Positions 2,876 to 45,446 of a stretch of DNA of 64,000 nt are shown piece after piece. Numbering within the stretch: position 1 is the first letter of the stretch; every line of letters starts with the position of its first letter. The position numbers and the translations under genes were made by a program. Source of the DNA: Candidatus Uhrbacteria bacterium (GTDB taxonomy: Bacteria; Patescibacteriota; Patescibacteriia; UBA9934); assembly GCA_963822405.1 (NCBI GenBank), contig CAWGHH010000002.1, positions 23,569 to 87,568 of the forward strand, in the 5' to 3' direction. The notes beneath the pieces were generated by a model that did not search any database, was not told where the DNA came from, and was given only the letters and a program-made list of their open reading frames with translations.

Positions 2876-2948
2876 CTATTCGATGTTTGGATTGAGTCAC
2901 TTTCTAGATAACCAATTTTTGAAAAGTGATGTGTTATCATACGAACAT

Positions 2949-5196: not shown

Positions 5197-6602
5197 AATC
5201 AATAACGCAAAAACATTTCTACCAGTATCTCAAGTGTCCGTCATGGATCGCTCATGACGCTAAGGAAGCCAGACTTGAGAACAAGCTAAAAGACCGTCTG
5301 CAGCAGGACGGTCTTTTGTCGTCACATGAAAAGGAATTATTGAAGGGTCGCGACGTAATTGACGTCGGGGTCGACCCATGCGTCGACCCTGGCCACGGCG
5401 ACGTCGAAGAATTATTCGCGCGTACGCTTGAAGAAATGAAAAAAGGGACGCCTACTATTTATGGGGGAGTTCTGGTTCATGGTCGATTTGTGGCCGAACC
5501 GGATTTGCTTGAACGCGTGGAAGGGAAGTCAAAGCTTGGCAAATATTATTACGTAGCTTGTGACATAAAGCGATCAAGTAGGCTCAAAGAAGAATACAGA
5601 CTACAGGGCTGTTTTTACGCCGAACTTTTGAATTTGATTCAGGGCACTCGACCACTCCAAGGCTACATCATGCATCCTAATAAGGAGGTCGAGGCTTACT
5701 TGCTTGAGGAGACTGCGGTGAAATACCGGCTTACGCTTGATGCCATTGAGCGAATAATGGACGGGGAAGAGGAGCCTCATTTTTTGACCAGCGATTGTAA
5801 ACAGTCGCCATGGTTTTCTATTTGTAAGCAAGGCGCTATTGAATGTGACTCGCTGTCTAGACTGAATAGAATTTGGCGCAGTGAAGTTAGAATATTTGAA
5901 GAAGCTGGATTTAAAACTGTCACAGATTTTGCTAGACAAAATCCTGACCTAATTGCCGCGCGTACTTCTGGAATCACTAGGGACAGAATAGACTTTTTAC
6001 ATCTGCAGGCGCGAGCATTACTCGAAAACAGATTTCTCAAAGTCGGCTCGGTTGATCTGCCCGAGAGCGATCTCATTCTTGTGGTCGATATCGAAAGCGA
6101 TCCGTTGCGCGACGTTCACTATTTGTTTGGCGTACTCGAAAAAGGTGACGGCATAGATGTCTATCATTCTTTCTTAGCGAAAGACCCGAAAGACGAGCGC
6201 CGAGCTTGGGAAGACTTCATTGCTTTCATGAAGAATTATCCTGGCGTGCCAATTTATCATTACGGTTGGAGCGAGCAAGCTACATTTAAGGAGCTTGGCG
6301 AAAAATATGCCACGCCAATTGAAACGCTTGTCATGCTTGAAGAGCAGGGTGTTGATCTATTAATTCGGTTACGCGAAGCAGTTGTCTTTCCGTTGTCTTT
6401 CTATTCGCTCAAAGACATTGCGCAGTTTCTAGGTTTCAAATGGAGACATGCAGATGCCTCTGGTCTTAACTCCGTTCTCTGGTTTAACGAGTGGCTGACA
6501 AAGAAGGACGAGTCTGCACTTAAAGACATCATCGAGTACAATGAAGACGACGTCCGTGCGACTCTCGTTTTGATCGAATGGGCACAAAAAAACCTGAAGT
6601 AG
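5193..6602 (+). CDS. RecB-like nuclease, TM0106 family (RNase H-like C-terminal domain)
   Basis: 469 aa; C-terminal [11 protein letters not shown]...[17 protein letters not shown] exonuclease-like motifs. Carries one in-frame family-A palindromic repeat, translated as [10 protein letters not shown]. Confidence 0.55.
5367..5390. repeat. palindromic repeat family A, copy A1 (GGGGTCGAC-CCATGC-GTCGACCC), in-frame inside the nuclease CDS
   Basis: Perfect 8-9 bp inverted arms around a 6-nt spacer; same unit as 6603, 27827 and 28487. Confidence 0.85.
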
Positions 6603-6624
6603 TGGTCGACCCATGCGTCGACCA
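6603..6624. repeat. palindromic repeat family A, copy A2 (TGGTCGAC-CCATGC-GTCGACCA), intergenic
   Basis: Begins 1 nt after the nuclease stop codon and 9 nt before the next start; the hairpin could also act as a terminator. Confidence 0.85.
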
Positions 6625-6632
6625 AATCTCTT

Positions 6633-7442
6633 ATGCGAACACGCCCTCTCACTTGGAAATCTTTCTGGCCTCTTTTCCTAATTTTGATCATCGCTGGCGT
6701 CCTCAAGATCAAGACGCATTTTTCGCAACCAGTCGTGCCAACGGCTACTGTGCCGGCGGTGACGCATGAAGAAATTGTCGAGGTGCCAACCACCCCGACC
6801 GAAAGCGCGGGAGTGCCCGCGCCTGCAACCTCCCCCCAGCCCCCTCCTTCTGAAGGAGGGGGAGTAGGCGAGCATCCTGCCGAGTTCAACCTCGCCGTTC
6901 CGTTTTCATCACAGGCGCCGTTCATGAAATGGGACGCGTATCATGAGGAGTCATGTGAGGAGGCGTCGATTTTGATGACGCTCGAGTTTTATAAAGGCGC
7001 GAAGTCTGTTGATCCACAATTTGCCGACGACGAATATTTGAAAATAACAACGCTTGAAGATTCACTTGGTTATGGCTTGAGCATGACTGCCGAACAGACA
7101 GTCGACATCATTCAAAAGTACTCCGACTACTCGGCGCGCGTGATTGAGAATCCAACCGTCGATCAACTCAAAGAACTTCTAGTTAAGGGCGAGCCGATCA
7201 TCATTCCCGCCGCTGGTCGCAAGCTCGGCAATCCGTTCTTCACTGGTATTGGTCCGCTCTATCACATGCTCGTTATTCGTGGCTACACAAAAGACGGCAA
7301 GTTCATCACAAACGACCCCGGCACCCGCCACGGCGAAAACTACACCTACGACGCCTCCGTCCTCATGAACGCCATCGGCGACTGGAACAACGGCGACCCC
7401 GAACACGGCGCAAAACGCGTTGTGATTATTGAGTCAAAATAG
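6633..7442 (+). CDS. peptidase C39-like domain protein, membrane-anchored with Pro/Thr-rich linker
   Basis: N-terminal TM segment; C-terminal domain resembles the recalled C39-like/YvpB family. The linker carries the family-B palindrome, translated as SPQPPPSEGGGVGEHP. Confidence 0.5.
   Translation: MRTRPLTWKSFWPLFLILIIAGVLKIKTHFSQPVVPTATVPAVTHEEIVEVPTTPTESAGVPAPATSPQPPPSEGGGVGEHPAEFNLAVPFSSQAPFMKWDAYHEESCEEASILMTLEFYKGAKSVDPQFADDEYLKITTLEDSLGYGLSMTAEQTVDIIQKYSDYSARVIENPTVDQLKELLVKGEPIIIPAAGRKLGNPFFTGIGPLYHMLVIRGYTKDGKFITNDPGTRHGENYTYDASVLMNAIGDWNNGDPEHGAKRVVIIESK
6841..6861. repeat. palindromic repeat family B, copy B4 (CCCCTCCTTC-T-GAAGGAGGGG), in-frame in the peptidase linker
   Basis: 21-bp perfect palindrome; extended similarity to copy B5 covers 6832-6873. 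Confidence 0.8.
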
Positions 7443-7497: not shown

Positions 7498-7526
7498 TTG
7501 ACAAAAGGCTGTTTTTCTGCTAAGAT
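7498..7526 (+). promoter_or_regulatory. sigma-70-like promoter TTGACA-N17-TAAGAT
   Basis: TTGACA at 7498-7503 and TAAGAT at 7521-7526 with a 17-nt spacer, 9 nt upstream of the GT4 ATG. Almost the same hexamers recur at 53546-53574. Confidence 0.35.
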
Positions 7527-7534
7527 TGGCGGTT

Positions 7535-8695
7535 ATGAAAATCGCAATGATAGGACAAAAAGGAGTACCGAATATCTTTGGCGGGGTTGAAACCCACGTC
7601 ACGGAATTAGCTACTCGACTAGTAAGACTTGATAATGACGTAATTGCTTACGCACGTTTTTGGTACACGCCACGCGGTACAAAGATGTTTAATGGCATCC
7701 GCGTTGTTCGTTTGCCAAGCATAAAGACCAAGATGTTGGATGCTATTTCGCATACCTTTCTTTCAACCATGCACGCATGTTTATTTGTGCGCCCTGACGT
7801 TTATCACTTCCACGGCGTAGGCCAGGCGTTACTTGCTTGGATCCCACGCGTCCTCGCGCCTCGTGCTCGAGTTGTTGTGACATTCCACGCCATTGACCGC
7901 TTCCACGATAAGTGGAATCCATTTGCGCGTTTAATGTTGCATTTGGGCGAGTATTGCGCAGTTACTTTCCCGCACGAGACCATTACGGTGTCGAAAGTCC
8001 TTCGCGACTATGTGAAGAAGGAATACGGTGTTCGCGCTACATATATTCCTAACGGAATTTCCCCTCGTCGCGCTTCTGCTGATCCAATTCTACTTAAGCC
8101 TTTTGGCCTTGAGCCGTTTGGTTACATTGCGGTCGTATCACGCCTTGTTCGCCACAAGGGTCAGCACACGCTGATTTCAGCTTGGCAGAAAGCGCGTGAA
8201 CTCCGCCCAGAACTATTTATGGATTTGAAGCTCGCCATTGTTGGCGACTCCGCCTTTACGGATGCGTACGTTCGCGAACTTAAGAAGATGGCTAAGGGTG
8301 ATGACTCGATTGTCTTCACTGGTTATCAACGTGGTGAAACTCTTGAATCCATTTTTATGGGCGCTCGATTCATTGTTCACCCATCTATTAGTGAAGGTTT
8401 GTCGATTGCCATCCTTGAGGCTATGAGCTACGGCAAGGCGGTTATTGCTGCGAGCATTCCTGAGAATATGGAAGCCCTCGGCGATCACGGTATCCCGTTT
8501 AAGCCGGGTAGGGTTAACGAGCTTGCTGATAAAATAGTCGAGCTAACAGAAGACCCAATGAAGGCCGCTGGTATAGGCCATGTAGCCAGACACTACGTAG
8601 AGGACACATTTAACTGGGATGCGATTTCGAAGAAGACACTTCACGTGTACGAGGAATACGCGAACCAGGCACAACCGGTTCTCGCGACTCGATAA
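7535..8695 (+). CDS. glycosyltransferase family 4
   Basis: N-terminal GT4 fold (MKIAMIGQKGVPNIFGGVETHV) and C-terminal EGLSIAILEAMSYGKAVIA motif. ATG 7535 is preferred over the TTG at 7526. Confidence 0.82.
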   Translation: MKIAMIGQKGVPNIFGGVETHVTELATRLVRLDNDVIAYARFWYTPRGTKMFNGIRVVRLPSIKTKMLDAISHTFLSTMHACLFVRPDVYHFHGVGQALLAWIPRVLAPRARVVVTFHAIDRFHDKWNPFARLMLHLGEYCAVTFPHETITVSKVLRDYVKKEYGVRATYIPNGISPRRASADPILLKPFGLEPFGYIAVVSRLVRHKGQHTLISAWQKARELRPELFMDLKLAIVGDSAFTDAYVRELKKMAKGDDSIVFTGYQRGETLESIFMGARFIVHPSISEGLSIAILEAMSYGKAVIAASIPENMEALGDHGIPFKPGRVNELADKIVELTEDPMKAAGIGHVARHYVEDTFNWDAISKKTLHVYEEYANQAQPVLATR

Positions 8696-8740: not shown

Positions 8741-8755
8741 TCTTGGATATTCTTT

Positions 8756-8781
8756 CCCCTTCCAGGGGGATAGAGGGGGTC
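8756..8781. repeat. palindromic repeat family B, copy B1 (CCCCTTCCAGGGGGATAGAGGGGGTC), intergenic
   Basis: Near-identical 27-mer to copy B3 at 51457-51483; contains a CCCCCT/AGGGGG hairpin. Confidence 0.8.
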
Positions 8782-8782
8782 A

Positions 8783-9058
8783 TTACTCACTTTCTAACGC
8801 TTTCGGGTTGGGGGAGTAGAGGCGGTTTTTGATTTTCCAGCGGTCTACATATTGGCCAAGGCCGGACTTGTTCATCTTATTTTTGACCGTTGTAGTTTCC
8901 TGACTCCACTTGAGTAAGGACTCGAATGTAATTTTATACCTACCTTGAACGACTATATACGTTACAGCCCCGTCGGATACTGCGCGACGGATTGTCCGCG
9001 GGCTGACGCCGAATAACTTAGAGGCTTCTGAGACGGAGAGTCTAATGAGAGTTTGCAT
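8783..9058 (-). CDS. helix-turn-helix DNA-binding protein (excisionase/MerR-like HTH_17)
   Basis: LSVSEASKLFGVSPRTIRRAV HTH motif; 91 aa; divergent from the ECF sigma gene. Confidence 0.6.
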   Translation of the reverse strand: MQTLIRLSVSEASKLFGVSPRTIRRAVSDGAVTYIVVQGRYKITFESLLKWSQETTTVKNKMNKSGLGQYVDRWKIKNRLYSPNPKALESE

Positions 9059-11100: not shown

Positions 11101-13059
11101 ATGCAACATGTTCTAGAAACTGGAAAGCGCGCAATCTCCGCAGCAGTAGCTGCCGCGACGATCGCTTTCTCAATCGGTGCTGGTGTTCTAATGACCCCAA
11201 GCACTTCTCACGCTGCAGCTGCCGGTGACCGCTTCCGAAGCGTTTCACTTTCTACTGTCTATTACTACGGTTACGACGGCATGCGTTACACGTACCCAAA
11301 CCTAAGCACTTATAAGAGCTGGCACATGACAGCTTCTGGCGCAGCTGATTTCAGCGGCGTTAGCACAGTTTCAGATAGCACGATCTCGGATATCACCTTG
11401 GGTGGTAACGTCGTCATGCGTGGCGGTTCCTACTGGATCAAGGTCACTTCTGACCCTAAGGTCTACGCGGTCGCCCGCAACGGTAACATTCACTGGATTG
11501 AATCAGAAGCTGTCGCCACCTCATTCGCTGGCTCCGACTGGAACCAGAGAATCGTTGACGTAGCCGATGTTTTCTTCACAGATTACACGGTTGGCTCCTC
11601 ACTCATGAGTGCCACTGCGTATGACGGTGTGATGTTCTCAGACGCTGGTAGCACATACCTCGCATGGGGTGGTGCAAAGCGTTTGGTATCCGCTGCAGGT
11701 ATGTCTGCTAACGGTCTCCAGTCCATGTTCGTCATGGATGGATCCGGTGTTGTAAGCAGCGCATTGTCTGCTGGTTCTGATTTGACTGTTAAGGACAGCG
11801 AAGTCTCTGACGACGCTCAGACTGTAGTTGGTTCATCGGTAGTTACTGGCGCCCTCACGGTGTCCGCAGCTTCCTCTATGCCAGCTGGTGCCTCCCTTCC
11901 AGGTGGCGCTAACTCAGTCCAGGTCTACTCCTTCAACGTGAAGGCAGGTAGCGAAGCTGCTACGTTCAGTGGTGTAACTCTCTCCATGATTGGAGCTGGT
12001 TCCACTAACAACATCAGCAACGCCTACTTGTACGAAGGTGCCACACGTTTGACGGAATCACGCACTGTGAACTCCTCAACACGTCAGGTTTCCTTCAACA
12101 ACTTGAACCGCGCTATTGCTGCAAACGCAATGCACACCTACACGGTGCGCGTAACCGTTTCTACGTCCCAGACGGCAGCTGATACGTTTGGCTTCAAGAT
12201 CGGAGCTTCTGCTGACGTAGTGTCCGCAGGATCCGTAGGCGGTTCCTTCCCAATCTCGGGAAACATCTTTACCCTCACCGGTACTGATGCTGGAACTCTC
12301 TTGATCACAAAGACCGGAACAATCGCTGACCCAACGGTTGGCGCACAGGACGCAGAAATTGGTCAGTTCAAGGCAGCCGCAAACGGCTCCGAGGCTGCAG
12401 ACATTTCCGCAATCACTCTTAAGATTGACAATGCTTCAGACCACGCAGACTTCCGTCTCTGGGATGGCAACGTTGAACTTTCTAAGGGTGTTAACTCCTC
12501 CGGTGACTGGGTAGTCTTTGATCTTTCCGCACATCCTTTCCACATCAACGAAGGTGGTAATAACATCTTCTCAGTGACTGCGGATATTGGCGGACAGTCA
12601 CTTGACACAGTTAAGGTTTACGTTGACAACGCAGTTGACGTTGTCGCTATCGGTGGTGACTACGGATTTGGCCTGACAATTGACATCAGCACCGGTTCTA
12701 CCGGTTACGATGGTACTTCTTGTACGGCTTCCACCGGTGAATGTTCCTTCAGCACGGTTAAGGGTGGCAAGCTCACGCTTGTACTCAACGGCCCAGCTGC
12801 TGGCGACATCCAGGTAGATTCTCAGGATCAGACTCTCTTGAAGTTCGCTGTGACCGCTACTCAGTACGTCAACATCAAGGACCTTGATATCAACGTCTAC
12901 GGTGATGACGACGCAGATGCAGACGCATTTGACGGAACTGAAGCTGACACAGATGTAAGCACGGACGGTTTGATCGGTGCTACTTCCGCTAACATCACGG
13001 ACATCAAGATCATTAACGCTGACACTGGCGCTGTGATCATGGGTCCTGATGGAGCTTGA
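11101..13059 (+). CDS. large secreted Ser/Thr/Gly/Ala-rich surface (S-layer/adhesin-like) protein, N-terminal part
   Basis: Signal peptide (AISAAVAAATIAFSIGAGVLMTPSTSHAAAAG); 652 aa of low-complexity beta-rich sequence. Ends at a TGA that overlaps the next ORF by 11 nt in the +1 frame. Confidence 0.6.
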   Translation: MQHVLETGKRAISAAVAAATIAFSIGAGVLMTPSTSHAAAAGDRFRSVSLSTVYYYGYDGMRYTYPNLSTYKSWHMTASGAADFSGVSTVSDSTISDITLGGNVVMRGGSYWIKVTSDPKVYAVARNGNIHWIESEAVATSFAGSDWNQRIVDVADVFFTDYTVGSSLMSATAYDGVMFSDAGSTYLAWGGAKRLVSAAGMSANGLQSMFVMDGSGVVSSALSAGSDLTVKDSEVSDDAQTVVGSSVVTGALTVSAASSMPAGASLPGGANSVQVYSFNVKAGSEAATFSGVTLSMIGAGSTNNISNAYLYEGATRLTESRTVNSSTRQVSFNNLNRAIAANAMHTYTVRVTVSTSQTAADTFGFKIGASADVVSAGSVGGSFPISGNIFTLTGTDAGTLLITKTGTIADPTVGAQDAEIGQFKAAANGSEAADISAITLKIDNASDHADFRLWDGNVELSKGVNSSGDWVVFDLSAHPFHINEGGNNIFSVTADIGGQSLDTVKVYVDNAVDVVAIGGDYGFGLTIDISTGSTGYDGTSCTASTGECSFSTVKGGKLTLVLNGPAAGDIQVDSQDQTLLKFAVTATQYVNIKDLDINVYGDDDADADAFDGTEADTDVSTDGLIGATSANITDIKIINADTGAVIMGPDGA

Positions 13060-15371: not shown

Positions 15372-15944
15372 ATGGACAGCCTTTTGAGCAAAATCTATCA
15401 GTCACAAAAAACGATCCTTACTAGTAAGGATTTGGCTTTGATTTGGCGAGAAACTGATCAAAATAATTTAAAAACGAAAATTTCATACTACGTAAAGCAA
15501 GGGTCGTTACTCCGTTTATCTAGGGGAATTTTCGCGAAAGATAGTAACTATTCTCCCAGGGAGCTGGCCACGAGTGTATATACTCCGTCGTACATAAGTT
15601 TTGAAACAGCGCTTCGTGACGCTGGCATGATTTTTCAACATCACGATACTATTTTTGTGGCTGGGCCATGGTCTAAGACGGTGCGCATTGACAAGACGTC
15701 TATTGTATTTCGGAAACTTAAAGAGAGCGTATTGTATAACCAGGAAGGGATAGAAAGAAACGAAACATATAGTATTGCTTCACCAGAGCGTGCATTTTTA
15801 GATATGATTTATCTTTTTCCAGAATATCACTTTGATAATCTTCGAGTATTAAATTGGGAGAAGTGCTTCGAATTAGTAAGAATATACAGCAATGCACAGC
15901 TGGAGAAGCGGTTAAGAAAGTATCAAAACATTTATGCTAAATAG
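15372..15944 (+). CDS. AbiEi-like antitoxin/transcriptional regulator (type IV TA)
   Basis: 190 aa; overlaps the following AbiEii-like gene by 11 nt. N-terminal wHTH-like region plus a C-terminal domain of AbiEi size. The assignment rests mainly on synteny. Confidence 0.55.
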   Translation: MDSLLSKIYQSQKTILTSKDLALIWRETDQNNLKTKISYYVKQGSLLRLSRGIFAKDSNYSPRELATSVYTPSYISFETALRDAGMIFQHHDTIFVAGPWSKTVRIDKTSIVFRKLKESVLYNQEGIERNETYSIASPERAFLDMIYLFPEYHFDNLRVLNWEKCFELVRIYSNAQLEKRLRKYQNIYAK

Positions 15945-16644
15945 AGAAAAGCACCAACTGATCATGGGGCGTATTTTGCGTGATATTTACGCTGACGCTT
16001 CGATTGCTTCATTGTTGGGTTTCAAGGGAGGCACCTGCGCGTATTTTTTTTATGACCTTCCAAGGTTTTCGGTAGATTTGGACTTTGATTATTTAGGAGG
16101 GGATGACACGGATAAGCAGTTAGTATTTGAGAAGTTGGGTAAGATCCTGGAGCAATACGGTCAGCTTAAGGATAGTTGTATCAAACTTAAAACAATATTC
16201 TTCCTTCTGTCTTATGGTGACAGTGATCACAATGTAAAAATTGAAGTAAGTACAAGGATGAACATTCCTAATTTTGGTGATCATTTTGAACTGAAAGAAT
16301 ATCTTGGTATTTCTATGCTAGTTAGTAAGCAACCATATCTTTTTGCGAGTAAGCTTGCGGCACTTACAACGCGAAGTGAGATGGCCACACGTGATATTTT
16401 TGATATCTGGTACTTTGCGAAGAGTAACTGGGATATTGATAGCGAGGTGCTCATTTTGAGGGTCGGAAAGAGTGTGAAAGACCATCTATTGGCATGCATT
16501 ACTGTTATCGAAGGAGTTAAGGACAATCAAATCCTCTATGGGTTAGGGGAGCTTGTCGACGAAAAAGGGAAGACATGGATCAAGAATCATTTACGAGATG
16601 AGGCAGTTTTTATGCTGAAAAATTATTCTTCTGTGTTGAGATGA
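15934..16644 (+). CDS. AbiEii/AbiGii-family nucleotidyltransferase toxin (DUF1814)
   Basis: LGFKGGTCAYFFYDLPRFSVDLDFD nucleotidyltransferase motif (GG..., D.D); 236 aa. Confidence 0.78.
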   Translation: MLNREKHQLIMGRILRDIYADASIASLLGFKGGTCAYFFYDLPRFSVDLDFDYLGGDDTDKQLVFEKLGKILEQYGQLKDSCIKLKTIFFLLSYGDSDHNVKIEVSTRMNIPNFGDHFELKEYLGISMLVSKQPYLFASKLAALTTRSEMATRDIFDIWYFAKSNWDIDSEVLILRVGKSVKDHLLACITVIEGVKDNQILYGLGELVDEKGKTWIKNHLRDEAVFMLKNYSSVLR

Positions 16645-16916: not shown

Positions 16917-19397
16917 GTGAAAAACAGCATTCTATTGTTCGTGTTCCTGACCGCGTGCATTTTCCCCCATGAACCATTGGTGGATGCGGATGGGGACGGT
17001 TATTGGGATTTTGAGGACTGTAATGACTCGGATGCGTCGATTAACCCCGGCGCGGAAGACATTATGTGCGAGGAGGTTGATCGCAACTGTGACGAGAACG
17101 TGGCGTACCCGCGCAATAGCACGTTCACGGACGCTGATGGTGATGGATTCGGTGACCCCGAAGCCTACATCGATCCATGTGCTGCCGTTCAGGGGGTCGA
17201 CAACCGCGACGATTGCAACGACGCGGATCCGGAGATTCATCCCGAACTTGAAGATCCGGCCGACGGAGTCGACAACGACTGCGACGGTGAGGTTGACGAG
17301 GACGCAGTGGTCGACGAAGACCTGGACGACGACGGTTACGGTGTGGACGACTGTGACGACACGAACGCGGGCATCAATCCCGATGCGGAGGAAATCTGCG
17401 ACGGGGTCGACAACGACTGTAACGGTTTGGTTGACGATGACGATACCGGTGTGGCCAGTCAGGCCACTTGGTACGTTGACGTTGACCATGACGGTTACGG
17501 GACGAGCGTGTCAGTCCTGGCTTGTGAAGAGCTGTCTGGCTACTCGGCCGACAACGGGGATTGCAATGACGAGAATTCGGACATTCACCCCGGGGCTGAT
17601 GAGTGGGACTGCTTGGATGTCACGGACTACAACTGTGACGGTCAAACGGGTTACACCGACGCTGACCTGGACTGCAGTCCTGCCTGTGAGGACTGTAACG
17701 ACCAGGACAAGAATTCCTATCCCGGCGCGTCAGAGGTTTGTGATAACGCCGACAACGATTGCAACAACATCGTGGACGATCCTGGCACGGTCACTGGCCA
17801 GAGTCCGTTCTACGCAGACCTTGATCATGACAGCTACGGAGACTTGAACTCTTTTGTGCTGGCTTGTTCTGTGCCAAACGGGTACACGGGCGACTCGACC
17901 GACTGCGATGACGGGAAAACACTCGTGCATCCAGGCGGCGTAGAGGTGTGTGACTCGAACAGCGTAGACGAAGACTGTGACGGAACAGCGAACGACGCTG
18001 ATAGTTCCGTGACCGGTAAATCTACGTTCAATAAAGATGTGGACGGTGATGGGTACGGCGGAGTGCTGACCATCGCCGCGTGCGTTGCGCCTCCGGGTTA
18101 TGTTGCCTTGATTGGCGACTGTGATGACTCGAGCGTTGCGTATCACCCGGGTGCACCCGAAGCTAGTTGTACAGATTCGCATGATTACAACTGTGACGGC
18201 GTAACTGGATATGTTGATCAAGACGGAGACGGCTCTCCGGCTTGCGAAGACTGCAACGACAACAACCCCAGCATTCATACCGGCGCCACAGAATTGTGCA
18301 ACGGTGTGGATGATAACTGTAACGGAACCGTAGACGGTTCAACTGAGGCCACGAATACAAATACTTACTACTTGGACGCAGATGGTGACACGTTCGGGAA
18401 ACTGAGTGCGACCACTAAGGCTTGTTCGTTACCGTCTGGCTACTCGTCGAATTCAACGGACTGTGATGACTCGAAAGTTGGGGTTAATCCCTCAGCGGTC
18501 GAAGTCTGCAACAGTATCGACGACAACTGTAACGGCCTGGCGGACGACGCCGACCCTGGCGTAACTGGTCGCGCTACGTACTATCGTGATGCGGACGGGG
18601 ACACTTTCGGGAGTTCGTCGACTACCAAGCTTGGTTGCGTTCAGCCTCCCGGTTACGTAGTCAGTTCGACTGACTGCAACGACGTCGTCAGCGCAATCAA
18701 TCCGAGCGCAGTTGAAATCTGCGACGTGAAAGACAACGACTGCGACGGCTTCGTTGATGACCAAGACCCGTCCATCACCGGCCAGACCAAGTGGTACGTG
18801 GATACGGATGGTGACGGTTACGGGAATCCGAACTCGTCGAAGCTCGTCTGTTCGCAACCGGCTAACTACGTCGTCAGCTCGACGGACTGCGATGACGCAA
18901 AGTCGGCCGTCAATCCGAGCGCGGTTGAGATCTGCGACGGGATAGACAACAACTGCGTTGGCGGCATTGACGACGGTCTAGCTACCAGTATTTGGTACGC
19001 CGACGTAGATGGTGACGGTTATCGGAATGTGAGTTCGTCGGTCACGGCGTGCGCTCGGCCTGCGGGCTATGTAGCGTCAACCGCCGGAGCGGATTGCGAT
19101 GACACAAACTCGCACGCTCAGACTACGGTTGGACCGGAGGTTTGCGACGGCTTCGACAATAACTGCGATGGTAATATCGACGAAACGTTCGGGACGCAGC
19201 CTTGGTACCCGGATACGGACGGCGATATGTACGGCCTGTTGTCGGGCATGGTTCGTAGCTGTTACCAGCTGCCTGGCTACGTTGACAACAAGTACGACTG
19301 CGACGACACGCGCAGTTATGTCCATCCGTCAGCGCAGGAGCTGTGCAACGGGATTGATGACAACTGCAACGTAACCGTTGACGAGAACTGCATTTGA
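16917..19397 (+). CDS. lipoprotein with about 17 tandem MopE-like Cys/Asp-rich putative metal-binding repeats
   Basis: GTG start; lipobox LTAC. The unit ...DCDDxxxxxxPGAxExCDGxDNDCDGxxDD and WYxDxDGDGYG recurs about every 70 aa. About 12% Asp and 8% Cys. Confidence 0.7.
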   Translation: MKNSILLFVFLTACIFPHEPLVDADGDGYWDFEDCNDSDASINPGAEDIMCEEVDRNCDENVAYPRNSTFTDADGDGFGDPEAYIDPCAAVQGVDNRDDCNDADPEIHPELEDPADGVDNDCDGEVDEDAVVDEDLDDDGYGVDDCDDTNAGINPDAEEICDGVDNDCNGLVDDDDTGVASQATWYVDVDHDGYGTSVSVLACEELSGYSADNGDCNDENSDIHPGADEWDCLDVTDYNCDGQTGYTDADLDCSPACEDCNDQDKNSYPGASEVCDNADNDCNNIVDDPGTVTGQSPFYADLDHDSYGDLNSFVLACSVPNGYTGDSTDCDDGKTLVHPGGVEVCDSNSVDEDCDGTANDADSSVTGKSTFNKDVDGDGYGGVLTIAACVAPPGYVALIGDCDDSSVAYHPGAPEASCTDSHDYNCDGVTGYVDQDGDGSPACEDCNDNNPSIHTGATELCNGVDDNCNGTVDGSTEATNTNTYYLDADGDTFGKLSATTKACSLPSGYSSNSTDCDDSKVGVNPSAVEVCNSIDDNCNGLADDADPGVTGRATYYRDADGDTFGSSSTTKLGCVQPPGYVVSSTDCNDVVSAINPSAVEICDVKDNDCDGFVDDQDPSITGQTKWYVDTDGDGYGNPNSSKLVCSQPANYVVSSTDCDDAKSAVNPSAVEICDGIDNNCVGGIDDGLATSIWYADVDGDGYRNVSSSVTACARPAGYVASTAGADCDDTNSHAQTTVGPEVCDGFDNNCDGNIDETFGTQPWYPDTDGDMYGLLSGMVRSCYQLPGYVDNKYDCDDTRSYVHPSAQELCNGIDDNCNVTVDENCI

Positions 19398-24339: not shown

Positions 24340-24351
24340 TCCTCCCCCCGA

Positions 24352-24374
24352 CCCCCTCCACTTCGTGGAGGGGG
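24352..24374. repeat. palindromic repeat family B, copy B5 (CCCCCTCCAC-TTC-GTGGAGGGGG), intergenic
   Basis: 10-bp perfect arms; the flanks 24341-24382 resemble copy B4. Lies between the DUF2304 stop and the GT4 ATG at 24392. Confidence 0.8.
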
Positions 24375-24391: not shown

Positions 24392-25504
24392 ATGAAAATA
24401 GCTATTGTTACCCCTGTTTTCCCTCCTTATAAGGGTGGTATTGGGCATGTGGCCGAGGCACAGGCTAATTCTTTGAAGGCACTAGGACATGAGGTGGTTG
24501 TGTTTGCGCCGTCGACCATGAAGCCATGGTTTTCTTACGGTAATGCCTCCATAACTCCACAACTTCTTTCTAAACTTTATAACTTTGATCTCATTCACGT
24601 TCACTACCCGTGCTACGGAACGGACGTCTTCGCGGCACTCGCCTCGATCGTGCATAAAACGCCCCTTGTGCTCACGTATCACATGAAAGCGGTGACGAAT
24701 GATTGGCGCAATATAATTTTTACTTTACACCGTTGGTTCATTGAGCCGATAATTTTCAAGATCGCTAAAATAGTGTTTGTCAGTACGTTCGAATATGCCG
24801 AGGCTTCCGGTATTCAGCATCCTCATCTTGTCGAAATGCCCTTCGGCGTAGACGGCGCGCGCTTCGCACCCGGTCCGGGTGGCGCGACCTTCCCCCTTCC
24901 AGGGGGCTCGCCCGTAGGGCGGTCTACGCCCGAGGGACCAGAGGGGGTCGCAGGGGCGCGCCTCCTCTTCGTGGGTGGTCTCGACCGCGCACACGACTTC
25001 AAAGGCGTCGACGTTCTTCTCCGAGCCTTTGCCACGCTTCCAGCTTCGGCGAGTTTACTTATTGCCGGCGACGGTGATCTTCGACTATTCTACGAGAGTC
25101 TCGCGCGCGATCTTAAAATTGCGGATCGGGTACAATTTCTTGGTCGAGTTTCTGACGAGGACTTGCCGAACGTATATCGCTCAGCTGATGTTCATGTATT
25201 GCCGAGTATCAATGGTGGCGAGGCTTTTGGTTTAGTTACACTTGAAGCCGCTGCCTCGGGTTTGCCGTCAGTAGTTAGCGACTTGCCTGGGGTTAGAACG
25301 CTCGTCGTAAAGGGTCAGACTGGATACTTGGCCAAGCCTGGAGATATTGATGACTTAGCTTATCAACTGCAAAAACTAGTAGATCACCCAGAAGACGCCA
25401 TAATTATGGGGGCAGCGGCTAGAGTTAGGGTCATGGAAAGTTACGACAGCGGGGCTATTGCGCGCTCATTACTCCAGGCGTATAACGGGATTCTGAAGGT
25501 ATGA
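24392..25504 (+). CDS. glycosyltransferase family 4 with an in-frame palindromic-repeat insertion in the interdomain linker
   Basis: MKIAIVTPVFPPYKGGIG N-terminal GT4 motif and C-terminal E..E region (GEAFGLVTLEAAASGLP). The insert FPLPGGSPVGRSTPEGPEGVAGAR corresponds to repeat B2. ATG 24392 is preferred over the upstream ORF start at 24314. Confidence 0.78.
   Translation: MKIAIVTPVFPPYKGGIGHVAEAQANSLKALGHEVVVFAPSTMKPWFSYGNASITPQLLSKLYNFDLIHVHYPCYGTDVFAALASIVHKTPLVLTYHMKAVTNDWRNIIFTLHRWFIEPIIFKIAKIVFVSTFEYAEASGIQHPHLVEMPFGVDGARFAPGPGGATFPLPGGSPVGRSTPEGPEGVAGARLLFVGGLDRAHDFKGVDVLLRAFATLPASASLLIAGDGDLRLFYESLARDLKIADRVQFLGRVSDEDLPNVYRSADVHVLPSINGGEAFGLVTLEAAASGLPSVVSDLPGVRTLVVKGQTGYLAKPGDIDDLAYQLQKLVDHPEDAIIMGAAARVRVMESYDSGAIARSLLQAYNGILKV
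24892..24950. repeat. palindromic repeat family B, composite copy B2 (CCCCCTTCCAGGGGG...GCCCGTAGGGC...GAGGGGGTCG), inside the GT4 CDS
   Basis: Shares the CCCCCTTCCAGGGGG and AGAGGGGGTCG ends with B1/B3, with an extra internal hairpin. Confidence 0.75.
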
Positions 25505-26730: not shown

Positions 26731-28695
26731 TTACTCAAACACCATCACTGTCACCTCGTGGTCGCCGAAGATCCAGGATGTGTCCGTGATGGTTTTTGAT
26801 TGTTCGATGACACGTTTGGAATCCCACCAATAATCGTCCATGACAAAGAAGACGAGCTGTGCGCCGGTGAGTGTGCGAGCTTGATCAACGGTTTCTTTGG
26901 TTGGTGCTTTGGCCATGTCGAGATAAAGCTGATAAAGGGGGCCACCGGTCGGGATAGGATAGAAATAGATATCGTCGTGATAATATTTTTTGAAACCGAG
27001 TTTTGCAATTGCGGCAGATGATGTTGCTTGGTTTGCAAGGACAACGTAATCGCGTCCCGCCGCATATTTATCAATGGCCGCCACCGCGTCAAAGTCAGCT
27101 TGCGTCACATTGAACCCCGCGGACGATGCATACGCGTCATACCGCGGGTACGCGCCATACACGGTCGACACGAACACGACGCCGATGACGACAATGGCAA
27201 ACGCGCCCCGCGCGTTGTAAGGGCCGACTTCTATGTCGGCCCCTCTCTCGATCGCATGTGGAATGTATGGCGTCAGGAACAACACCGTCAGGGTCAGCAT
27301 TCTGGCCGCAAAATCCGTCCGTTCATACGAAATCAAAAACGGGAAATCAAAGAACAACCCGAGGATAAGGAAATTCGAAAACGCAATCCCCGCACAAATC
27401 AACGGGACGAATTGTCGTAGGGGCCGACTTCTATGTCGGCCCTCTTGGAGCATCCGCCACGCCCCCACAATCCCCAAAACAACGGTCACGATAAATATAT
27501 TCCCGATGATCAGATACGCCGTATCACCCCACGCATTAAAATGCGTTCCGACAAATGCGGTTAACGGCAGAGCGGTCAGGTCGTGGATGGTCGGCAGGTG
27601 CAATCCAATCGGCATGTGCGCCTTCATGGATTGCACGATAAATGCCGCCGGCAATGCAACGGCCGATGCGATTGCGACGATGATCGTCGCGGCTGTAAGG
27701 GTCGACTTCGATGTCGACCCTCTCTCCGCCACGTACATCATCCCCACGAAAAACACCGCCGGCAACCCCGCAATCGGATGTGCACATAGCGCCGCGAGTG
27801 CGAAAATACCCGTGATCATCGTGGTAGGGGTCGACCCATGCGTCGACCCATCCGGATCCGCGCGTGTCGTGCCCAACAACACCGCCATCGCCGTAAACAC
27901 AAACGCCAACGCTTGTGGGGTGGTCTGCACGAACGCGGCGATAGGCAGAACCAACAACATCGCCGCCGTAAGGGTCGACTTCGATGTCGACCCTTGATTG
28001 GTCCGCATGAGCACCGCCGCCGGAATCAACGTCGCCGCCAAAAGTGGCACGAGGTACACGTCCACGAGCATTAGTGGCAGGTGGAGCACCTTCAGCGCGA
28101 ACAATTCGATCACATATTCGCCAATGTAGTAGAGGGGTTTCGGGGTGATCGTTCCAAAGTCGGCAATATGTTGGATGGTTGCGCGATGCAAGAATGGATC
28201 GAACCCATACCCAAGCGGATATACCGTCGCTACAAATGACAACGCCGAGAACAGGGTCATGACAATCACGCCGAAGGCCATCGCGGTTGTAAGGGTCGAC
28301 TTCAATGTCGACCCTCTCTTCATCATCACCGCCGCACACACCGTTGGTATGAACAGCCACACCAGGTTGGCCGGCGAAATCACCAACCACGGCGAGCGTA
28401 CCGATTCGAGAATCGGATGAGTGAGGATAGCGTGCCACCACGCGCCGAGGGACGCGACTGCAATTACCGCGAGGAAAACCGCTGTAGGGGTCGACCCCCG
28501 CGTCGACCCTCGTTGAACTGTGACCAAGGGAAAGGATTTTGATAGCAAGAAAATCGCCCCGATCGCCATAGCTGCGCAGACAATCAGTCCGACAGTTGTC
28601 ACATTCATGACATAATAGAGAAAAGTAGCCAGAATGCTATAAATAGCTAAACCGGCGCCAGACCAAATGATTCCTTGAAGAAAGCGATTAAACAT
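26731..28695 (-). CDS. polytopic integral membrane protein (GT-C-like?) carrying seven in-frame family-A palindromic repeat insertions
   Basis: 654 aa with more than 12 hydrophobic segments. The peptides [55 protein letters not shown] and RGADIEVGP map exactly onto repeats A9 to A3. Confidence 0.6.
   Translation of the reverse strand: MFNRFLQGIIWSGAGLAIYSILATFLYYVMNVTTVGLIVCAAMAIGAIFLLSKSFPLVTVQRGSTRGSTPTAVFLAVIAVASLGAWWHAILTHPILESVRSPWLVISPANLVWLFIPTVCAAVMMKRGSTLKSTLTTAMAFGVIVMTLFSALSFVATVYPLGYGFDPFLHRATIQHIADFGTITPKPLYYIGEYVIELFALKVLHLPLMLVDVYLVPLLAATLIPAAVLMRTNQGSTSKSTLTAAMLLVLPIAAFVQTTPQALAFVFTAMAVLLGTTRADPDGSTHGSTPTTMITGIFALAALCAHPIAGLPAVFFVGMMYVAERGSTSKSTLTAATIIVAIASAVALPAAFIVQSMKAHMPIGLHLPTIHDLTALPLTAFVGTHFNAWGDTAYLIIGNIFIVTVVLGIVGAWRMLQEGRHRSRPLRQFVPLICAGIAFSNFLILGLFFDFPFLISYERTDFAARMLTLTVLFLTPYIPHAIERGADIEVGPYNARGAFAIVVIGVVFVSTVYGAYPRYDAYASSAGFNVTQADFDAVAAIDKYAAGRDYVVLANQATSSAAIAKLGFKKYYHDDIYFYPIPTGGPLYQLYLDMAKAPTKETVDQARTLTGAQLVFFVMDDYWWDSKRVIEQSKTITDTSWIFGDHEVTVMVFE
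27221..27243. repeat. palindromic repeat family A, copy A3 (GGGCCGAC-TTCTAT-GTCGGCCC)
   Basis: GCCGAC variant of the unit; preceded by GTAA; read in-frame as GADIEVGP on the minus strand. Confidence 0.85.
27421..27442. repeat. palindromic repeat family A, copy A4 (GGGCCGAC-TTCTAT-GTCGGCCC)
   Basis: Identical core to A3 but read in a different codon phase (GRHRSRP); preceded by GTAG. Confidence 0.85.
27699..27720. repeat. palindromic repeat family A, copy A5 (GGGTCGAC-TTCGAT-GTCGACCC)
   Basis: Preceded by GTAA; translated as RGSTSKSTL. Confidence 0.85.
27827..27849. repeat. palindromic repeat family A, copy A6 (GGGGTCGAC-CCATGC-GTCGACCC)
   Basis: Identical to copy A1 at 5367; preceded by GTAG; translated as DGSTHGSTP. 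Confidence 0.85.
27972..27993. repeat. palindromic repeat family A, copy A7 (GGGTCGAC-TTCGAT-GTCGACCC)
   Basis: Identical to A5; preceded by GTAA; translated as QGSTSKSTL. Confidence 0.85.
28293..28314. repeat. palindromic repeat family A, copy A8 (GGGTCGAC-TTCAAT-GTCGACCC)
   Basis: Preceded by GTAA; translated as RGSTLKSTL. Confidence 0.85.
28487..28509. repeat. palindromic repeat family A, copy A9 (GGGGTCGAC-CCCCGC-GTCGACCC)
   Basis: Preceded by GTAG; translated as RGSTRGSTP. Confidence 0.85.
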
Positions 28696-32969: not shown

Positions 32970-33284
32970 ATGGAGGTAATTGTTTATTACACCGACACGC
33001 AAGAGTTTATAGCAGATCTTGATGATGTGCCGACTGCCAAGGTGATCAGTCTCATTCGTGCTCTTCGGGTCTGCGGAAGTGACATGAGCATGCCACAGAG
33101 CAGAAGTCTTGGCGGAGGTCTCTTTGAATTGCGGGCAAGAGGCAAGAAGGAAGTCCGACTTTTTTATTGTTTCCATCGTGATTCCGCGATTATTCTTCAT
33201 GGGATTATTAAGAAAACCTCAAAGATTCCCAGGAATGAAATCGAGATCGCAAAATCACGTATGGGAAAAATTGCTGGATTATAG
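32970..33284 (+). CDS. type II toxin, RelE/HigB-like (phage Gp49-like family)
   Basis: 104 aa; LFELR...RLFYCF...AIILHGIIKKTSKIPRNEIEIAKSR matches the recalled Gp49/HigB-like toxins paired with XRE antitoxins. Confidence 0.6.
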   Translation: MEVIVYYTDTQEFIADLDDVPTAKVISLIRALRVCGSDMSMPQSRSLGGGLFELRARGKKEVRLFYCFHRDSAIILHGIIKKTSKIPRNEIEIAKSRMGKIAGL

Positions 33285-33307
33285 CGTATAAGCTATAATC
33301 ACAATAT

Positions 33308-33631
33308 ATGAAAAAGAACGAAATAAAAATGGTTAATTTTAGAGTTATTGAGCGGGAACTCATGAAACGTCCGGGAGTACGTAAGGCGGTTGAGGATCTC
33401 AAGCATGATCCTGAATTTGCACTGCTTGATCGTATTATCGAAAAACGGAAGGAAGAAGGTCTCACACAAGCGAAACTTGCAAAGAAGATGAAGACTACGC
33501 AATCTGCAGTGGCCAGATTTGAAGCTGGCGACACAAATCCTACATTAGACTTTTTAAAGAAGCTCGCCGACGCACTTGGAACCGACATGAAGATTACGTT
33601 TAAGGATCGAGTCGTTTCGAAAGCGCGATAG
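33308..33631 (+). CDS. XRE-family HTH antitoxin (HigA-like)
   Basis: LTQAKLAKKMKTTQSAVARFEAG HTH_XRE motif; 107 aa; immediately downstream of the toxin. Confidence 0.7.
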   Translation: MKKNEIKMVNFRVIERELMKRPGVRKAVEDLKHDPEFALLDRIIEKRKEEGLTQAKLAKKMKTTQSAVARFEAGDTNPTLDFLKKLADALGTDMKITFKDRVVSKAR

Positions 33632-43756: not shown

Positions 43757-45376
43757 ATGCAACATTCTTATCTGTTTATCGTTGGTGGCGTCATGAGTGG
43801 CGTTGGTAAGGGGACATCGAGCGCGGCATTGGCGCTCACGCTCAAGGCAAAAGGCTACAAAGCGACCATGATGAAGATTGATCCGTACGTGAACGTTGAC
43901 GCTGGCACAATGAACCCGCTTGAACACGGTGAAGTGTTCGTGACTACGGATGGCGATGAGACTGACCAGGATATTGGAACCTATGAACGCTTTTTGAACG
44001 AGGATATTACTCGACTAAATTACATGACGACTGGGCGCGTTTATCAGACGGTCATTGCTCGCGAGCGAAATCTTGAGTACGGGGGAAAATGCGTAGAAGT
44101 CGTCCCGCACGTACCGGAAGAAATCATTCGTCGAATCAAGACTGCCGCCGAGCACGCCGAAGCTGACATTACGATTATTGAAGTTGGCGGAACAGTGGGG
44201 GAGTACCAGAACATTTTGTTCTTGGAAGCCGCTCGCATGTTGCAGGGGGAGCTTGGTCGAGACCGAGTTCAGTTTGTGCTTGTTAGTTATTTGCCGGTGC
44301 CGAAGTCTATTGGCGAGATGAAAACTAAGCCGACGCAATACGCGGTGCGTGAGCTAAATGGTGTAGGCATTTTGCCGAATTACATCGTCGGTCGTTCTGA
44401 GTATCCGATCGATAAGCCACGAAAAGAAAAGATTGCTATGTTCTGCGCGGTTTCGGCAGAGAACATTATTTCGGCCCCAGATGTTTCGAGTATCTACGAC
44501 ATTCCAGATATGTTCGAGGGTCAGGAATTTGCCAGCAAAGTGCTAAAGGGTTTTGGCCTTGTTCAAAAGCAAAACGACCTTGAAGCTTGGAATGATTTTA
44601 CGGCCAAGATTCGTTCGGCGCAGAAGGAGGTCCGAGTCGGAGTGGTCGGCAAATACTTTTCAACGGGAGATTTTGTGCTATCCGACGTGTATCTTTCGGT
44701 GCTTGAATCGATTAAGCACGCTGGCGCTGCACTTGGGGTGAAGCCGGTTATTGAGTGGTTGAATGCCGAGTTATATGAAACTAATCCTGAGAAGCTAGTT
44801 GATCTTAAAGACTTGCATGCAATTGTTATTCCCGGCGGGTTTGGTTCGCGTGGTATCGAGGGAAAAATTAAGGTTATCGAGTACGTCCGCGTGAATAACA
44901 TTCCGTACCTCGGTTTGTGTTACGGTATGCAATTGGCGGTTGTCGAGTATGCCAGAAACGTCCTTGGCTGGACTGACGCGAATACTACGGAGATCGATAA
45001 ACTGACGGCTCATCCAGTGATTGATTTCATGGCGGGACAGAATGAAAACGTCGAGAAGGGTAATTACGGTGGTACGCTCCGTCTTGGTTCGTACGATTGC
45101 GTTCTCGCGCCGGGTACGAAGTCTGCGGTAGCGTACGGGCGTCCAACAATTTCAGAACGTCACCGTCATCGCTATGAGTTCAACAATACCTTTCGCGCCG
45201 AACTTGAGGCGGCTGGCTTAATCATTGCCGGTACTTCGCCCGACGGATCACTTGTAGAAATGATCGAGCACAAGAATCACCCTTTCTTTGTTGGCGTGCA
45301 GTTCCATCCTGAATTCCAAAGTCGGCCATTAGCCCCACATCCGCTCTTCGTTGCGCTCCTGAGCGGGCGGGAATAA
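43757..45376 (+). CDS. pyrG: CTP synthase
   Basis: N-terminal GGVMSGVGKGTSSAAL P-loop region and C-terminal glutamine amidotransferase (GLCYGMQLAVVE, HPEF); 539 aa. Confidence 0.95.
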   Translation: MQHSYLFIVGGVMSGVGKGTSSAALALTLKAKGYKATMMKIDPYVNVDAGTMNPLEHGEVFVTTDGDETDQDIGTYERFLNEDITRLNYMTTGRVYQTVIARERNLEYGGKCVEVVPHVPEEIIRRIKTAAEHAEADITIIEVGGTVGEYQNILFLEAARMLQGELGRDRVQFVLVSYLPVPKSIGEMKTKPTQYAVRELNGVGILPNYIVGRSEYPIDKPRKEKIAMFCAVSAENIISAPDVSSIYDIPDMFEGQEFASKVLKGFGLVQKQNDLEAWNDFTAKIRSAQKEVRVGVVGKYFSTGDFVLSDVYLSVLESIKHAGAALGVKPVIEWLNAELYETNPEKLVDLKDLHAIVIPGGFGSRGIEGKIKVIEYVRVNNIPYLGLCYGMQLAVVEYARNVLGWTDANTTEIDKLTAHPVIDFMAGQNENVEKGNYGGTLRLGSYDCVLAPGTKSAVAYGRPTISERHRHRYEFNNTFRAELEAAGLIIAGTSPDGSLVEMIEHKNHPFFVGVQFHPEFQSRPLAPHPLFVALLSGRE

Positions 45377-45446
45377 TATTATTGCTCTTCGGCTGTCGTC
45401 GGATTACCGACTAAGCAGCCTCATCGCAACAATATTATTCCCGCCC
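45365..45446. repeat. 21-bp inverted repeats (GGGCGGGAATAATATTATTGC / GCAACAATATTATTCCCGCCC) flanking a 40-bp hairpin-containing spacer
   Basis: Arms at 45365-45385 and 45426-45446, 20/21 complementary. The first arm overlaps the pyrG stop codon; an inner TCGG-ATTA-CCGA hairpin lies between the arms. Confidence 0.7.

Follow-up and report, generated by a model that had tools for sequence, protein, structure and literature searches.

Why does a gene for a family 4 glycosyltransferase (GT4) carry a G/C-rich palindromic repeat, in frame, between its two domains, and why does the same repeat recur elsewhere in the same DNA? The stretch in question is a 64,000-nucleotide piece of a Candidatus Uhrbacteria genome (GenBank assembly GCA_963822405.1, contig CAWGHH010000002.1, positions 23,569 to 87,568), hereafter the window, which is about 94% coding according to our gene list. 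A first-pass annotation had described a palindromic family B at three sites and related palindromes at two others, and had regarded them as repeats dispersed at the level of DNA rather than as a protein motif. We find that both groups form a single class, the G/C-rich class II (C-G*G, purine-motif) intrastrand triplex motif. We consider it likely that the units are triplex-motif repeats of the BoxC/PIT/TM type, maintained for their structure in a gene-dense genome in which they occupy spacers and disordered linkers. This kind of repeat is known but obscure. What is new is the lineage, together with in-frame coding copies that show fast turnover, a setting that the searchable literature does not describe for such repeats; a search there for the sequence and for repeats in Candidate Phyla Radiation (CPR)/Patescibacteria genomes returned nothing relevant.

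Three-block units in the window

Each unit consists of a pyrimidine block, a loop, a complementary purine block, a second loop of mostly 3 nt, and a third block in which the purine block is mirrored, T being permitted opposite A. The B unit (27-30 nt; sequence CTTCCCCCTTCCAGGGGGATAGAGGGGGTC, oligonucleotide form TCCCCCTTCCAGGGGGATAGAGGGGGT) occurs three times on the plus strand, and all three sites read as originally described. Copy B3 (51454-51483) contains a perfect seven-triad motif, TCCCCCT / TCC / AGGGGGA / TAG / AGGGGGT, at 51456-51482. Copy B1 (8752-8781), which reads TTCCCCT / TCC / AGGGGGA / TAG / AGGGGGT and thus has one C-to-T mismatch in the pyrimidine block, is identical to B3 at 29 of 30 positions. 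Copy B2 (24888-24949) lies inside the GT4 gene at about residues 166-186. It shares with B3 an 18-nt head (24888-24906, with flanking CCTT; blocks TCCCCCT / TCC / AGGGGG) and a 10-nt tail (24940-24949, with third block AGGGGGT), placed around a G/C-rich filler of 33 nt (24907-24939) that widens loop 2 to 34-36 nt. The filler is predicted to form a small hairpin of its own, GGGCG-GTCTA-CGCCC. No second copy of it was found in the window, and we rejected it as a third repeat family.

The related palindromes at 6841-6861 and 24352-24374 are also present. Both share the 10-bp stem CCCCCTCC-N7-GGAGGGGG (6840-6862 and 24352-24374), and both carry an extra C-run block on the 5' side, which makes them members of the same class as B on the other strand. 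Read on the minus strand, they form a perfect 11-triad unit at 6826-6862 (CCCCCTCCTTC / A / GAAGGAGGGGG / CTG / GGGGGAGGTTG) and a perfect 8-triad unit at 24341-24374 (CCCCCTCC / ACGAAGT / GGAGGGGG / TCG / GGGGGAGG; hairpin of 10 bp with a 3-nt loop). The initial description therefore needs two amendments. The hairpin is real, but a palindrome alone does not describe the units, because a third, mirror-symmetric purine block is present. The two groups are indeed related, but they are not separate, being one class in opposite orientations, with 8-11 triads in the minus-strand members.

These sequences are far more frequent than expected by chance. The string CCCCCTTCCAGGGGG, with up to two mismatches, has four matches in the window versus 0.03 expected, CCCCTCC-N(1-12)-GGAGGGG has two versus 0.00, and perfect hairpins initiated by C5 occur at 0.01 per shuffled window. 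A scan modelled on ITxF that required perfect triads recovered three units, compared with none in 100 shuffles. Its relaxed form recovered four, adding B2 (seven triads, one mismatch), compared with 0.03 in shuffles; B1 differs by one base. Several properties of the class are present: three blocks with G*G-C, A*A-T or T*A-T triads (with one mismatch each in B1 and B2), a frequency above that in scrambled sequence (3 versus 0.0) and copies that are well conserved within the genome (29/30 for B). ITxF specifies stems of 6-15 nt, with one mismatch only if they exceed 7 nt, and loops of 1-6 nt. The units at 51456-51482 (7/3/3) and 6826-6862 (11/1/3) lie within these limits, and that at 24341-24374 has a first loop of 7 nt as scored with eight triads.

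All 15 listed units from the window, its relatives and Escherichia coli obey the mirror rule. In 13 of them the purine block is asymmetric, and there a direct-repeat reading fits only 3-7 of the 7-11 positions. The probability that a third block would mirror its purine block by chance ranges from 1e-4 to 2e-6 per unit. Among nine testable hairpins that were found blind to the third block, seven have a perfect one. The other two, from the GT4 sites of two relatives (L002 and L003), have decayed third blocks that, as read by eye, fit at 8/10 and 7/9 positions. Neither slippage nor fold-back synthesis can generate a mirror repeat, so its persistence points to the structure itself as what is probably maintained.

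Other candidate features were examined and rejected. One exact 16-mer pair, GGGGGAGTAGGCGAGC (6858 and 26488), is near chance expectation in 64 kb. The G-rich 16-mer GGGGGAGTAGAGGCGG at 8810 is not a copy but coding sequence of a conserved minus-strand gene (8783-9058), and is conserved in a relative (L095). TT-NNN-AA centres recall tRNA anticodon loops but are merely palindrome extensions, and the complementarity of the third block to anti-Shine-Dalgarno sequence extends over only 4-5 nt and so is not special.

Occupied and empty sites among relatives

In the window, units were found only at places of low potential harm, that is, just outside stop codons or in frame within disordered linkers that tolerate Pro and Gly. 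Three of the five copies are translated in frame (in the GT4, the C39 peptidase and a hypothetical protein), whereas the remaining two are intergenic and lie no more than 1 nt from a stop codon. Both orientations are represented.

The GT4 gene (24392-25504, plus strand; 370 aa) was identified by Pfam, orthologues and synteny. Its start is taken to be ATG 24392, as in all orthologues (MKIA/MRIA), and its homologues carry the labels Patescibacteria or Uhrbacteria. The insert peptide, FPLPGGSPVGRSTPEGPEGVAGAR, corresponds to residues 167-190 and was correctly quoted and placed in the first-pass annotation, since it lies between Pfam domains Glyco_transf_4 (15-140) and Glycos_transf_1 (192-344). 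In an AlphaFold model based on a 15-sequence alignment, the mean predicted local distance difference test (pLDDT) score is 86, and only residues 161-190 fall to 44-54. In the model this segment has no regular secondary structure and joins the final strand of the N-terminal domain to the first strand of the C-terminal domain, which places the insert in a predicted disordered interdomain loop. As read from the sequence, the B unit is open in five of its six frames, and in the remaining one the loop-2 TAG appears as a stop. B2 is read in exactly that frame, with the 33-nt filler replacing the AT that would create the stop; any order of events at this copy (filler versus stop avoidance) is inferred.

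We compared this site across eight syntenic orthologues. Distant orthologues (L006, L008 and all others in the alignment) have a short ordinary linker that lacks a unit or any equivalent Gly/Pro-rich segment, and L005 has a linker rich in Thr and Ser. An equivalent linker in all orthologues, which the first-pass annotation had named as grounds for refutation, is thus not what the alignment shows. Each of the four closest orthologues has its own motif version at the identical spot: CCCCCTCCT / AGGAGGGGG / GGGGGTGGT in L001, CCTCCCCCTT-ACG-AAGGGGGAGG in L002, CCCCCTCTT-TCA-AAGAGGGGG in L003 and CCCCCTTCT / AGAAGGGGG / GGGGGAAGT in L004. Thus the GT4 gene does contain an in-frame repeat, but not a unique insertion. 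The C-run falls in differing codon phases among these orthologues, and the flanks align cleanly. Because the four closest orthologues hold other versions, the site is a hot spot, either old or recurrent, at which turnover is fast. Comparison of L001 with L004 reveals a position that has changed jointly in all three blocks, from C-G*G to T-A*A. The third block therefore covaries with the duplex, and such joint change at orthologous sites is comparative evidence that triplex potential is maintained, beyond the hairpin. As a separate observation, the conserved N-terminal GT4 motif PVFPPYKGG is encoded in L002 (989-1017) by sequence that meets the triplex rule with six triads, which indicates that the complementarity of Pro and Gly codons can mimic the motif.

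The unit at 24341-24374 fills the spacer between the DUF2304 gene (stop codon 24337-24339) and the GT4 gene. It begins 1 nt past the DUF2304 stop and ends 17 nt ahead of the GT4 ATG, which, given that start, agrees with the earlier assignment of 24352-24374 as intergenic. The corresponding spacers of L001, L003, L004 and L008 are 2-7 nt, and the junction in L002 holds a different, B-like unit (CTCCCCCT/AGGGGGAG/GAGGGGGT). In L005 and L006, this spacer is occupied by a different palindrome, GAAGGATCCGAC...GTCGGA(C)TCTTC, within 90 nt upstream of the start of GT4. The junction is therefore colonised by unrelated hairpin repeats as well.

The second intergenic copy, B1, is squeezed between two genes: on one side is the terminator of gene 7526-8695, on the other the stop codon (8783-8785) belonging to minus-strand gene 8783-9058. 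This conserved gene of 91 aa, the stop of which is 1 nt from the end of B1, was missed by a 100-aa cut-off for open reading frames (ORFs). An empty version of the site exists in L095, where the terminator directly adjoins ATTACTCA (the stop of the small convergent gene); compared with it, the window is longer by about 44 nt, the last of which belong to B1.

Two further genes contain units. In the gene for a C39-like peptidase (6633-7442, plus strand; assigned by Pfam and orthologues), 6826-6862 is translated on the plus strand as PQPPPSEGGG, which overlaps the previously noted and correctly quoted PPPSEGGGV, in a linker between a membrane helix and the C39 domain (Pfam from residue 89). L095 lacks 24 nt of this linker, GAAGGAGGGGGAGTAGGCGAGCAT, including the purine arm, and L096 lacks everything. 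In a conserved hypothetical gene (51211-51969, plus strand; 252 aa with an N-terminal membrane helix), B3 is translated as LPPSRGIEGV, as had been reported, also within a linker; a structure model of this protein has a mean pLDDT of 48 and is too weak for use. Five of its seven orthologues lack the insert, and two carry other versions, namely PPPSEGGGRGEV in P0124 and CCTCCCCCT/AGGGGGAGG/GGAGGGGGT in P0126 (L093); the near-identical L094 has none.

In qualitative terms, then, four occupied sites (the GT4, C39 and hypothetical-gene linkers and the DUF2304-GT4 spacer) differ in length and sequence between relatives, and their flanks are conserved. The units are multi-copy, orthologous sites may hold one or be empty, and the version differs from genome to genome. 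In addition to the three B copies here, the two units of L001 share a TTACGAA centre and a loop-2 CCA, and L002 and L093, both from one sample, have the arms CCTCCCCCTT/AAGGGGGAGG in common. These genome-specific versions argue for copying or homogenisation within genomes.

Matches in other genomes and other features of the window

To cover other phyla, we scanned 185,579 species genomes (GTDB representatives, which do not include the source genome) for CCCCTTCCAGGGGG-N(2-32)-AGAGGGGG. The scan yielded 82 stretches with 88 matches, compared with roughly 2 expected by chance for this 22-base pattern. Matches occur in Dehalococcoidia, Arenicellales, Sedimenticolaceae, a Planctomycetota metagenome-assembled genome (MAG), Elusimicrobia, Bacteroidota and others. 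Perfect triplex motifs account for 59 of the 88, mostly CTCCCCCT / TCC / AGGGGGAG / YTA / GAGGGGGT, and many of the remaining matches (in Dehalococcoidia and Chloroflexi) have a small hairpin within loop 2, as does B2. Dehalococcoidia loci L013, L018, L019, L021, L029, L042, L060, L067 and L079 have an extra loop-2 hairpin, for example GGGGGGAG-A-TGCCGAAGGCA-GAGGGGG, that recalls the B2 filler. A first impression of horizontal transfer, based on identity across phyla, had to be tempered, because the pattern searched for left no freedom in loop 1 or in either G-block and because the class is known to be widespread. We therefore read these matches as evidence of ubiquity and constraint, not as proof of horizontal transfer. 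No matches were found among viral contigs, or in JGI metagenomes when an exact 24-mer was used as the query.

Some of these distant units resemble those in the window in their location. A valyl-tRNA synthetase (ValRS) of Chloroflexi (L036, SB0664_bin_15, 7162-7196) has an in-frame unit N-terminal to its aligned catalytic domain, and a unit-like peptide, recognised at the peptide level only, between its catalytic and anticodon-binding domains. A DnaE2-like polymerase of Sedimenticolaceae (L062, 3109-3134) has a unit and a neighbouring unit-like peptide between its HHH and OB domains. Others form inverted pairs: two units in the Planctomycetota MAG fold into an 83-nt hairpin (-26.7 kcal/mol, z -3.9), and such pairs were also read in Arenicellales and E. 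coli sequence. When 2726 ORFs from 80 scanned loci were clustered all against all, the only recurrent gene families were ABC ATPases, aminoacyl-tRNA synthetases and short-chain dehydrogenases/reductases (SDRs).

Two matches come from a MAG (CAYGEQ01) labelled as uncultured Gammaproteobacteria. One is an exact 30-nt B unit (L011, 627-653) that encodes TPSIPLEGGS just past a lipoprotein lipobox, and the other is a 31-nt B variant with one extra base in loop 2 (L035, 285-312). The two contigs encode proteins that are 40-49% identical to lineage-specific proteins of the window (a MopE-like protein and the product of gene 11101-13059). Judging by these similarities, the contigs may be Patescibacteria-like and mislabelled or mis-binned.

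In E. coli, a 35-mer from a repeat of similar appearance matches thousands of records at 100% identity. It occurs in 4518 of 5426 genomes, at a median of six places per genome, and no annotated feature lies under the matches listed, which are intergenic. In the hrpB-mrcB spacer it reads CCCTCTCCC-TGT-GGGAGAGGG-CCG-GGGTGAGGG, followed by an inverted partner. A full-text search identified this sequence as the TM_ECO/BoxC repeat of Holder et al. 2015 (PMC4666352).

The window contains several additional features. Another palindrome family, GTCGACC-N5-GTCGACC (for example GGGGTCGACCCATGCGTCGACC), is presumably the first family of the initial annotation, and occurs at 5370-5388, 6605-6623, 27701-27719, 27830-27848, 27974-27992, 28295-28313 and 28490-28508 (and 60567-60595). 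A conserved hypothetical gene, 26731-28695 on the minus strand, holds five of the copies, read in a single frame (GST.(K/G)ST); gene 5193-6602 holds another, and a further, intergenic copy sits immediately ahead of the C39 gene. Genes resembling defence or toxin-antitoxin systems (15934-16644, 32970-33631, 59330-59695, 2883-3776 and 5193-6602) include an AbiEii toxin, a pair of Gp49-like and helix-turn-helix (HTH) proteins, a PIN domain, a BRO-N domain protein and an RNase_H_2 protein with a weak Cas4-like match. A large Cys/Asp-rich protein encoded at 16917-19397 has internal DNA repeats of about 200-213 nt, and the annotation of its L003 and L006 orthologues includes Pfam Cu-binding_MopE. 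Finally, an inverted repeat of 31 nt (45365-45446; 84% complementary, 20-nt spacer) overlaps the end of the CTP synthase gene and reaches into the spacer before a convergent O-antigen-ligase-like gene.

Explanations for the repeats and their relation to known systems

One alternative is that the units are non-autonomous transposons resembling repetitive extragenic palindromes (REP/REPIN) or MITEs (miniature inverted-repeat transposable elements). The hairpin would then be the site of a trans-acting HUH transposase (RAYT or IS200/IS605-type), or another transposase, encoded elsewhere, and the third block would be incidental. Short G/C-rich hairpin repeats whose presence varies between relatives would suit such an origin, the inverted doublets of Planctomycetota, Arenicellales and E. 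coli resemble REPINs or BIMEs, and genome-specific versions fit amplification within genomes. However, comparison of filled and empty versions of the hypothetical-gene, B1 and C39 sites revealed no target-site duplications, none is visible at the GT4 linker or the DUF2304-GT4 spacer, and no 5' GTAG is conserved. No transposase domain, including RAYT/Y1, was detected among 37 window proteins scanned, and none is common to the 80 loci. The units are also only 27-37 nt, whereas MITEs have terminal inverted repeats, generate duplications and typically measure 50-500 bp. TM_ECO itself is not linked to transposons, phages or plasmids (PMC4666352). Transposition also does not account for the third block, which in all 13 asymmetric units is a mirror and neither a direct nor an inverted copy. 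We regard this explanation as unlikely.

A slightly less probable proposal is that the elements benefit the host, either as programmed pause sites for replication or transcription or as local mutators of envelope-gene linkers and spacers, in the manner of contingency loci. Adaptive instability has been put forward as a speculation for triplex motifs by Holder et al. (PMC4666352), occupied sites here are hypervariable, and the host genes are related to the envelope (GT4, a secreted C39 peptidase and a membrane protein gene beside murG). Yet the variation affects disordered linkers that have no evident functional read-out, most orthologues do without units, and copies in other phyla also reside in ValRS and a DnaE2-like polymerase. 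Moreover, PIT elements had neither promoter or terminator activity nor an in vivo effect in E. coli (PMC4666352).

We consider it very improbable that the units act in RNA or translation, with G-runs serving as Shine-Dalgarno-like or ribosome-pausing sequences or with hairpins that stabilise or terminate transcripts. The resemblance to a Shine-Dalgarno sequence had been raised in the first-pass annotation, and it is true that 24341-24374 places GGAGGGGGAGGAG upstream of the GT4 start, that L002 has GGAGGGGG 9 nt ahead of its ATG and that B1 comes after a terminator. But units occur in both orientations relative to transcription, three lie within genes, no start follows B1 downstream on its own strand, hairpins are not followed by a T-run, and the only upstream copy in the window ends 17 nt before the ATG. 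A search of the window against Rfam at the gathering threshold recovered only three tRNAs, and six loci searched at an E-value threshold gave only tRNAs and chance microRNA-like matches, so no Rfam family matches. In addition, purine-motif triplexes do not form in RNA (PMC4666352), and a role in RNA therefore leaves the conserved third block unexplained.

Protein-level selection for flexible Pro/Gly-rich linkers, with the DNA symmetry as a by-product of CCN/GGN complementarity, accounts for peptides rich in P, G, S and E that lie in linkers and for the six-triad FPPYKGG sequence of L002, but is close to refuted because two of five copies are non-coding and because one DNA sequence is read in differing frames and orientations (LPPSRGIEGV, FPLPGG..PEGV, TPSIPLEGGS, SPFQGE, SPWKGE), and it offers no rationale for the mirror third block or for the identical non-palindromic flanks and loops that copies share. 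The claim that the repeat is dispersed at the DNA level is thus upheld, with B2 and B3 read in different frames.

The most probable explanation remains that these are BoxC/PIT/TM-type repeats maintained for their structure, in which case the encoded peptides would be passengers. In brief, the first two blocks on one DNA strand can fold into a hairpin, and the third block can, by published triad rules, lie antiparallel along the purine arm, forming G*G-C, A*A-T and T*A-T triads. By analogy with E. coli, a single strand might fold in this way during replication or repair and stall polymerases, which would leave the site prone to insertions and deletions (indels). Such indel-prone folding would explain hypervariable occupied linkers beside conserved flanks. 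Selection would then leave only in-frame, stop-free versions at permissive sites. The weakest step concerns how copies might spread or stay alike; for this we favour structure-dependent copying, for instance by ectopic gene conversion, by template switching or by some structure-specific enzyme, over a classical transposase.

Several points weigh against this explanation. The evidence in the window amounts to five copies in 64 kb, and our scan required perfect triads, so that the units it found are perfect by construction. B1 has its mismatch in a 7-nt stem, and loop 2 of B2 exceeds the ITxF loop limit. Folding with ViennaRNA, which considers Watson-Crick pairs only, gives single B units a z of -1; shuffled sequences of equal composition fold about as well, and minimum free energy therefore does not single the units out. 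Complementary Pro and Gly codons give linkers of the P..G type some hairpin potential even when no element is present, as in the FPPYKGG of L002. The cross-phylum matches are partly forced by the pattern and may reflect convergence. We know of no mechanism of propagation for the triplex-motif class. Also, no triplex signal was obtained for TM_ECO in duplex DNA, nor was it protected from dimethyl sulfate (DMS) in vivo (PMC4666352), and formation of the triplex in vivo is unproven even for E. coli.

A bolder interpretation goes further. It states that triplex-motif repeats are structure-propagated DNA elements found across phyla, that the third strand is selected, as seen in the three-way covariation at orthologous sites, so that the triplex would form and matter in vivo, and that the elements routinely colonise genes in frame to create fast-evolving interdomain linkers even in essential proteins (GT4, C39 peptidase and the membrane protein here, ValRS and the DnaE2-like polymerase in Chloroflexi and Gammaproteobacteria). 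We offer this as a tentative possibility that is rather doubtful at present. After three decades, BoxC/PIT/TM repeats still have, to our knowledge, neither an assigned function nor a known means of spread. An ultra-small Patescibacteria genome has nearly no spacers, and the repeats are thereby forced into view inside genes. In-frame copies make interdomain linkers change quickly, which bears on annotation (spurious Pro/Gly-rich "low complexity") and on protein evolution in reduced genomes, and such sites also bear on assembly or indel errors. They serve as a warning that Pro/Gly-rich linker inserts can be driven by DNA, not protein.

Other short repeats share some of these properties. Like REP, BIME and REPIN sequences, the units are short G/C-rich hairpins with genome-specific sequences, and they form inverted doublets in other phyla. 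Unlike those, window units lack GTAG at their ends, are not confined to extragenic positions and have no RAYT in the window, and a third mirror block is not a REP feature. The Rickettsia palindromic elements (RPEs) that Ogata and colleagues reportedly described in 2000 are said to lie both between genes and in frame inside genes at permissive positions. They share with the units a selfish appearance, a small gene-dense genome and in-frame insertion at permissive protein positions as well as intergenic placement. However, RPEs are simple palindromes of about 95-150 bp confined to Rickettsia, whereas the units described here measure 27-37 nt (B2, 61 nt), include a third, mirrored block and occur in another lineage; by this description, neither length nor host lineage agrees with RPE membership. 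RPEs are mentioned in Cozzuto et al. 2008 (PMC2267715), and the Cod-2 repeat of Corynebacterium diphtheriae, the subject of that paper, is another of the closest known repeats; no triplex architecture is reported for it.

The closest relatives are the intrastrand triplex motifs known as BoxC since the 1990s, as PIT elements in work from the Maher laboratory (Hoyne and Maher 2000, as cited) and as TM_ECO (Holder et al. 2015, PMC4666352). The class was already known to be widespread, and TM_ECO has been reported in Proteobacteria. In E. coli K-12 it has 23 copies that are "always intergenic", in both orientations and including five inverted pairs; its triplex forms in isolated single strands in vitro, and occupied loci are far more variable between strains than control loci (PMC4666352). 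The units described here share with these repeats the three blocks with a mirror purine block (A-to-T allowed), the 3-nt second loop, multiple copies conserved within the genome in both orientations and no associated transposase. As with TM_ECO, there are inverted pairs (here seen in other phyla), and occupied loci are unusually variable among close relatives. The TM_ECO consensus is CCCTCNCCC-N3-6-GGGNGAGGG-N3-GGGNGAGGG, in intergenic locations. Window units depart from it in their block sequences, which are C5/G5-based (TCCCCCT, CCCCCTCC) rather than CCCTCNCCC, and in having 7-11 triads instead of 9. They also differ in residing in Patescibacteria, in that three of five copies are inside genes and translated in frame, and in a structured second loop of 34 nt in one copy. 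By architecture the window units belong to the BoxC/PIT/TM class, but by sequence to a different family from TM_ECO.

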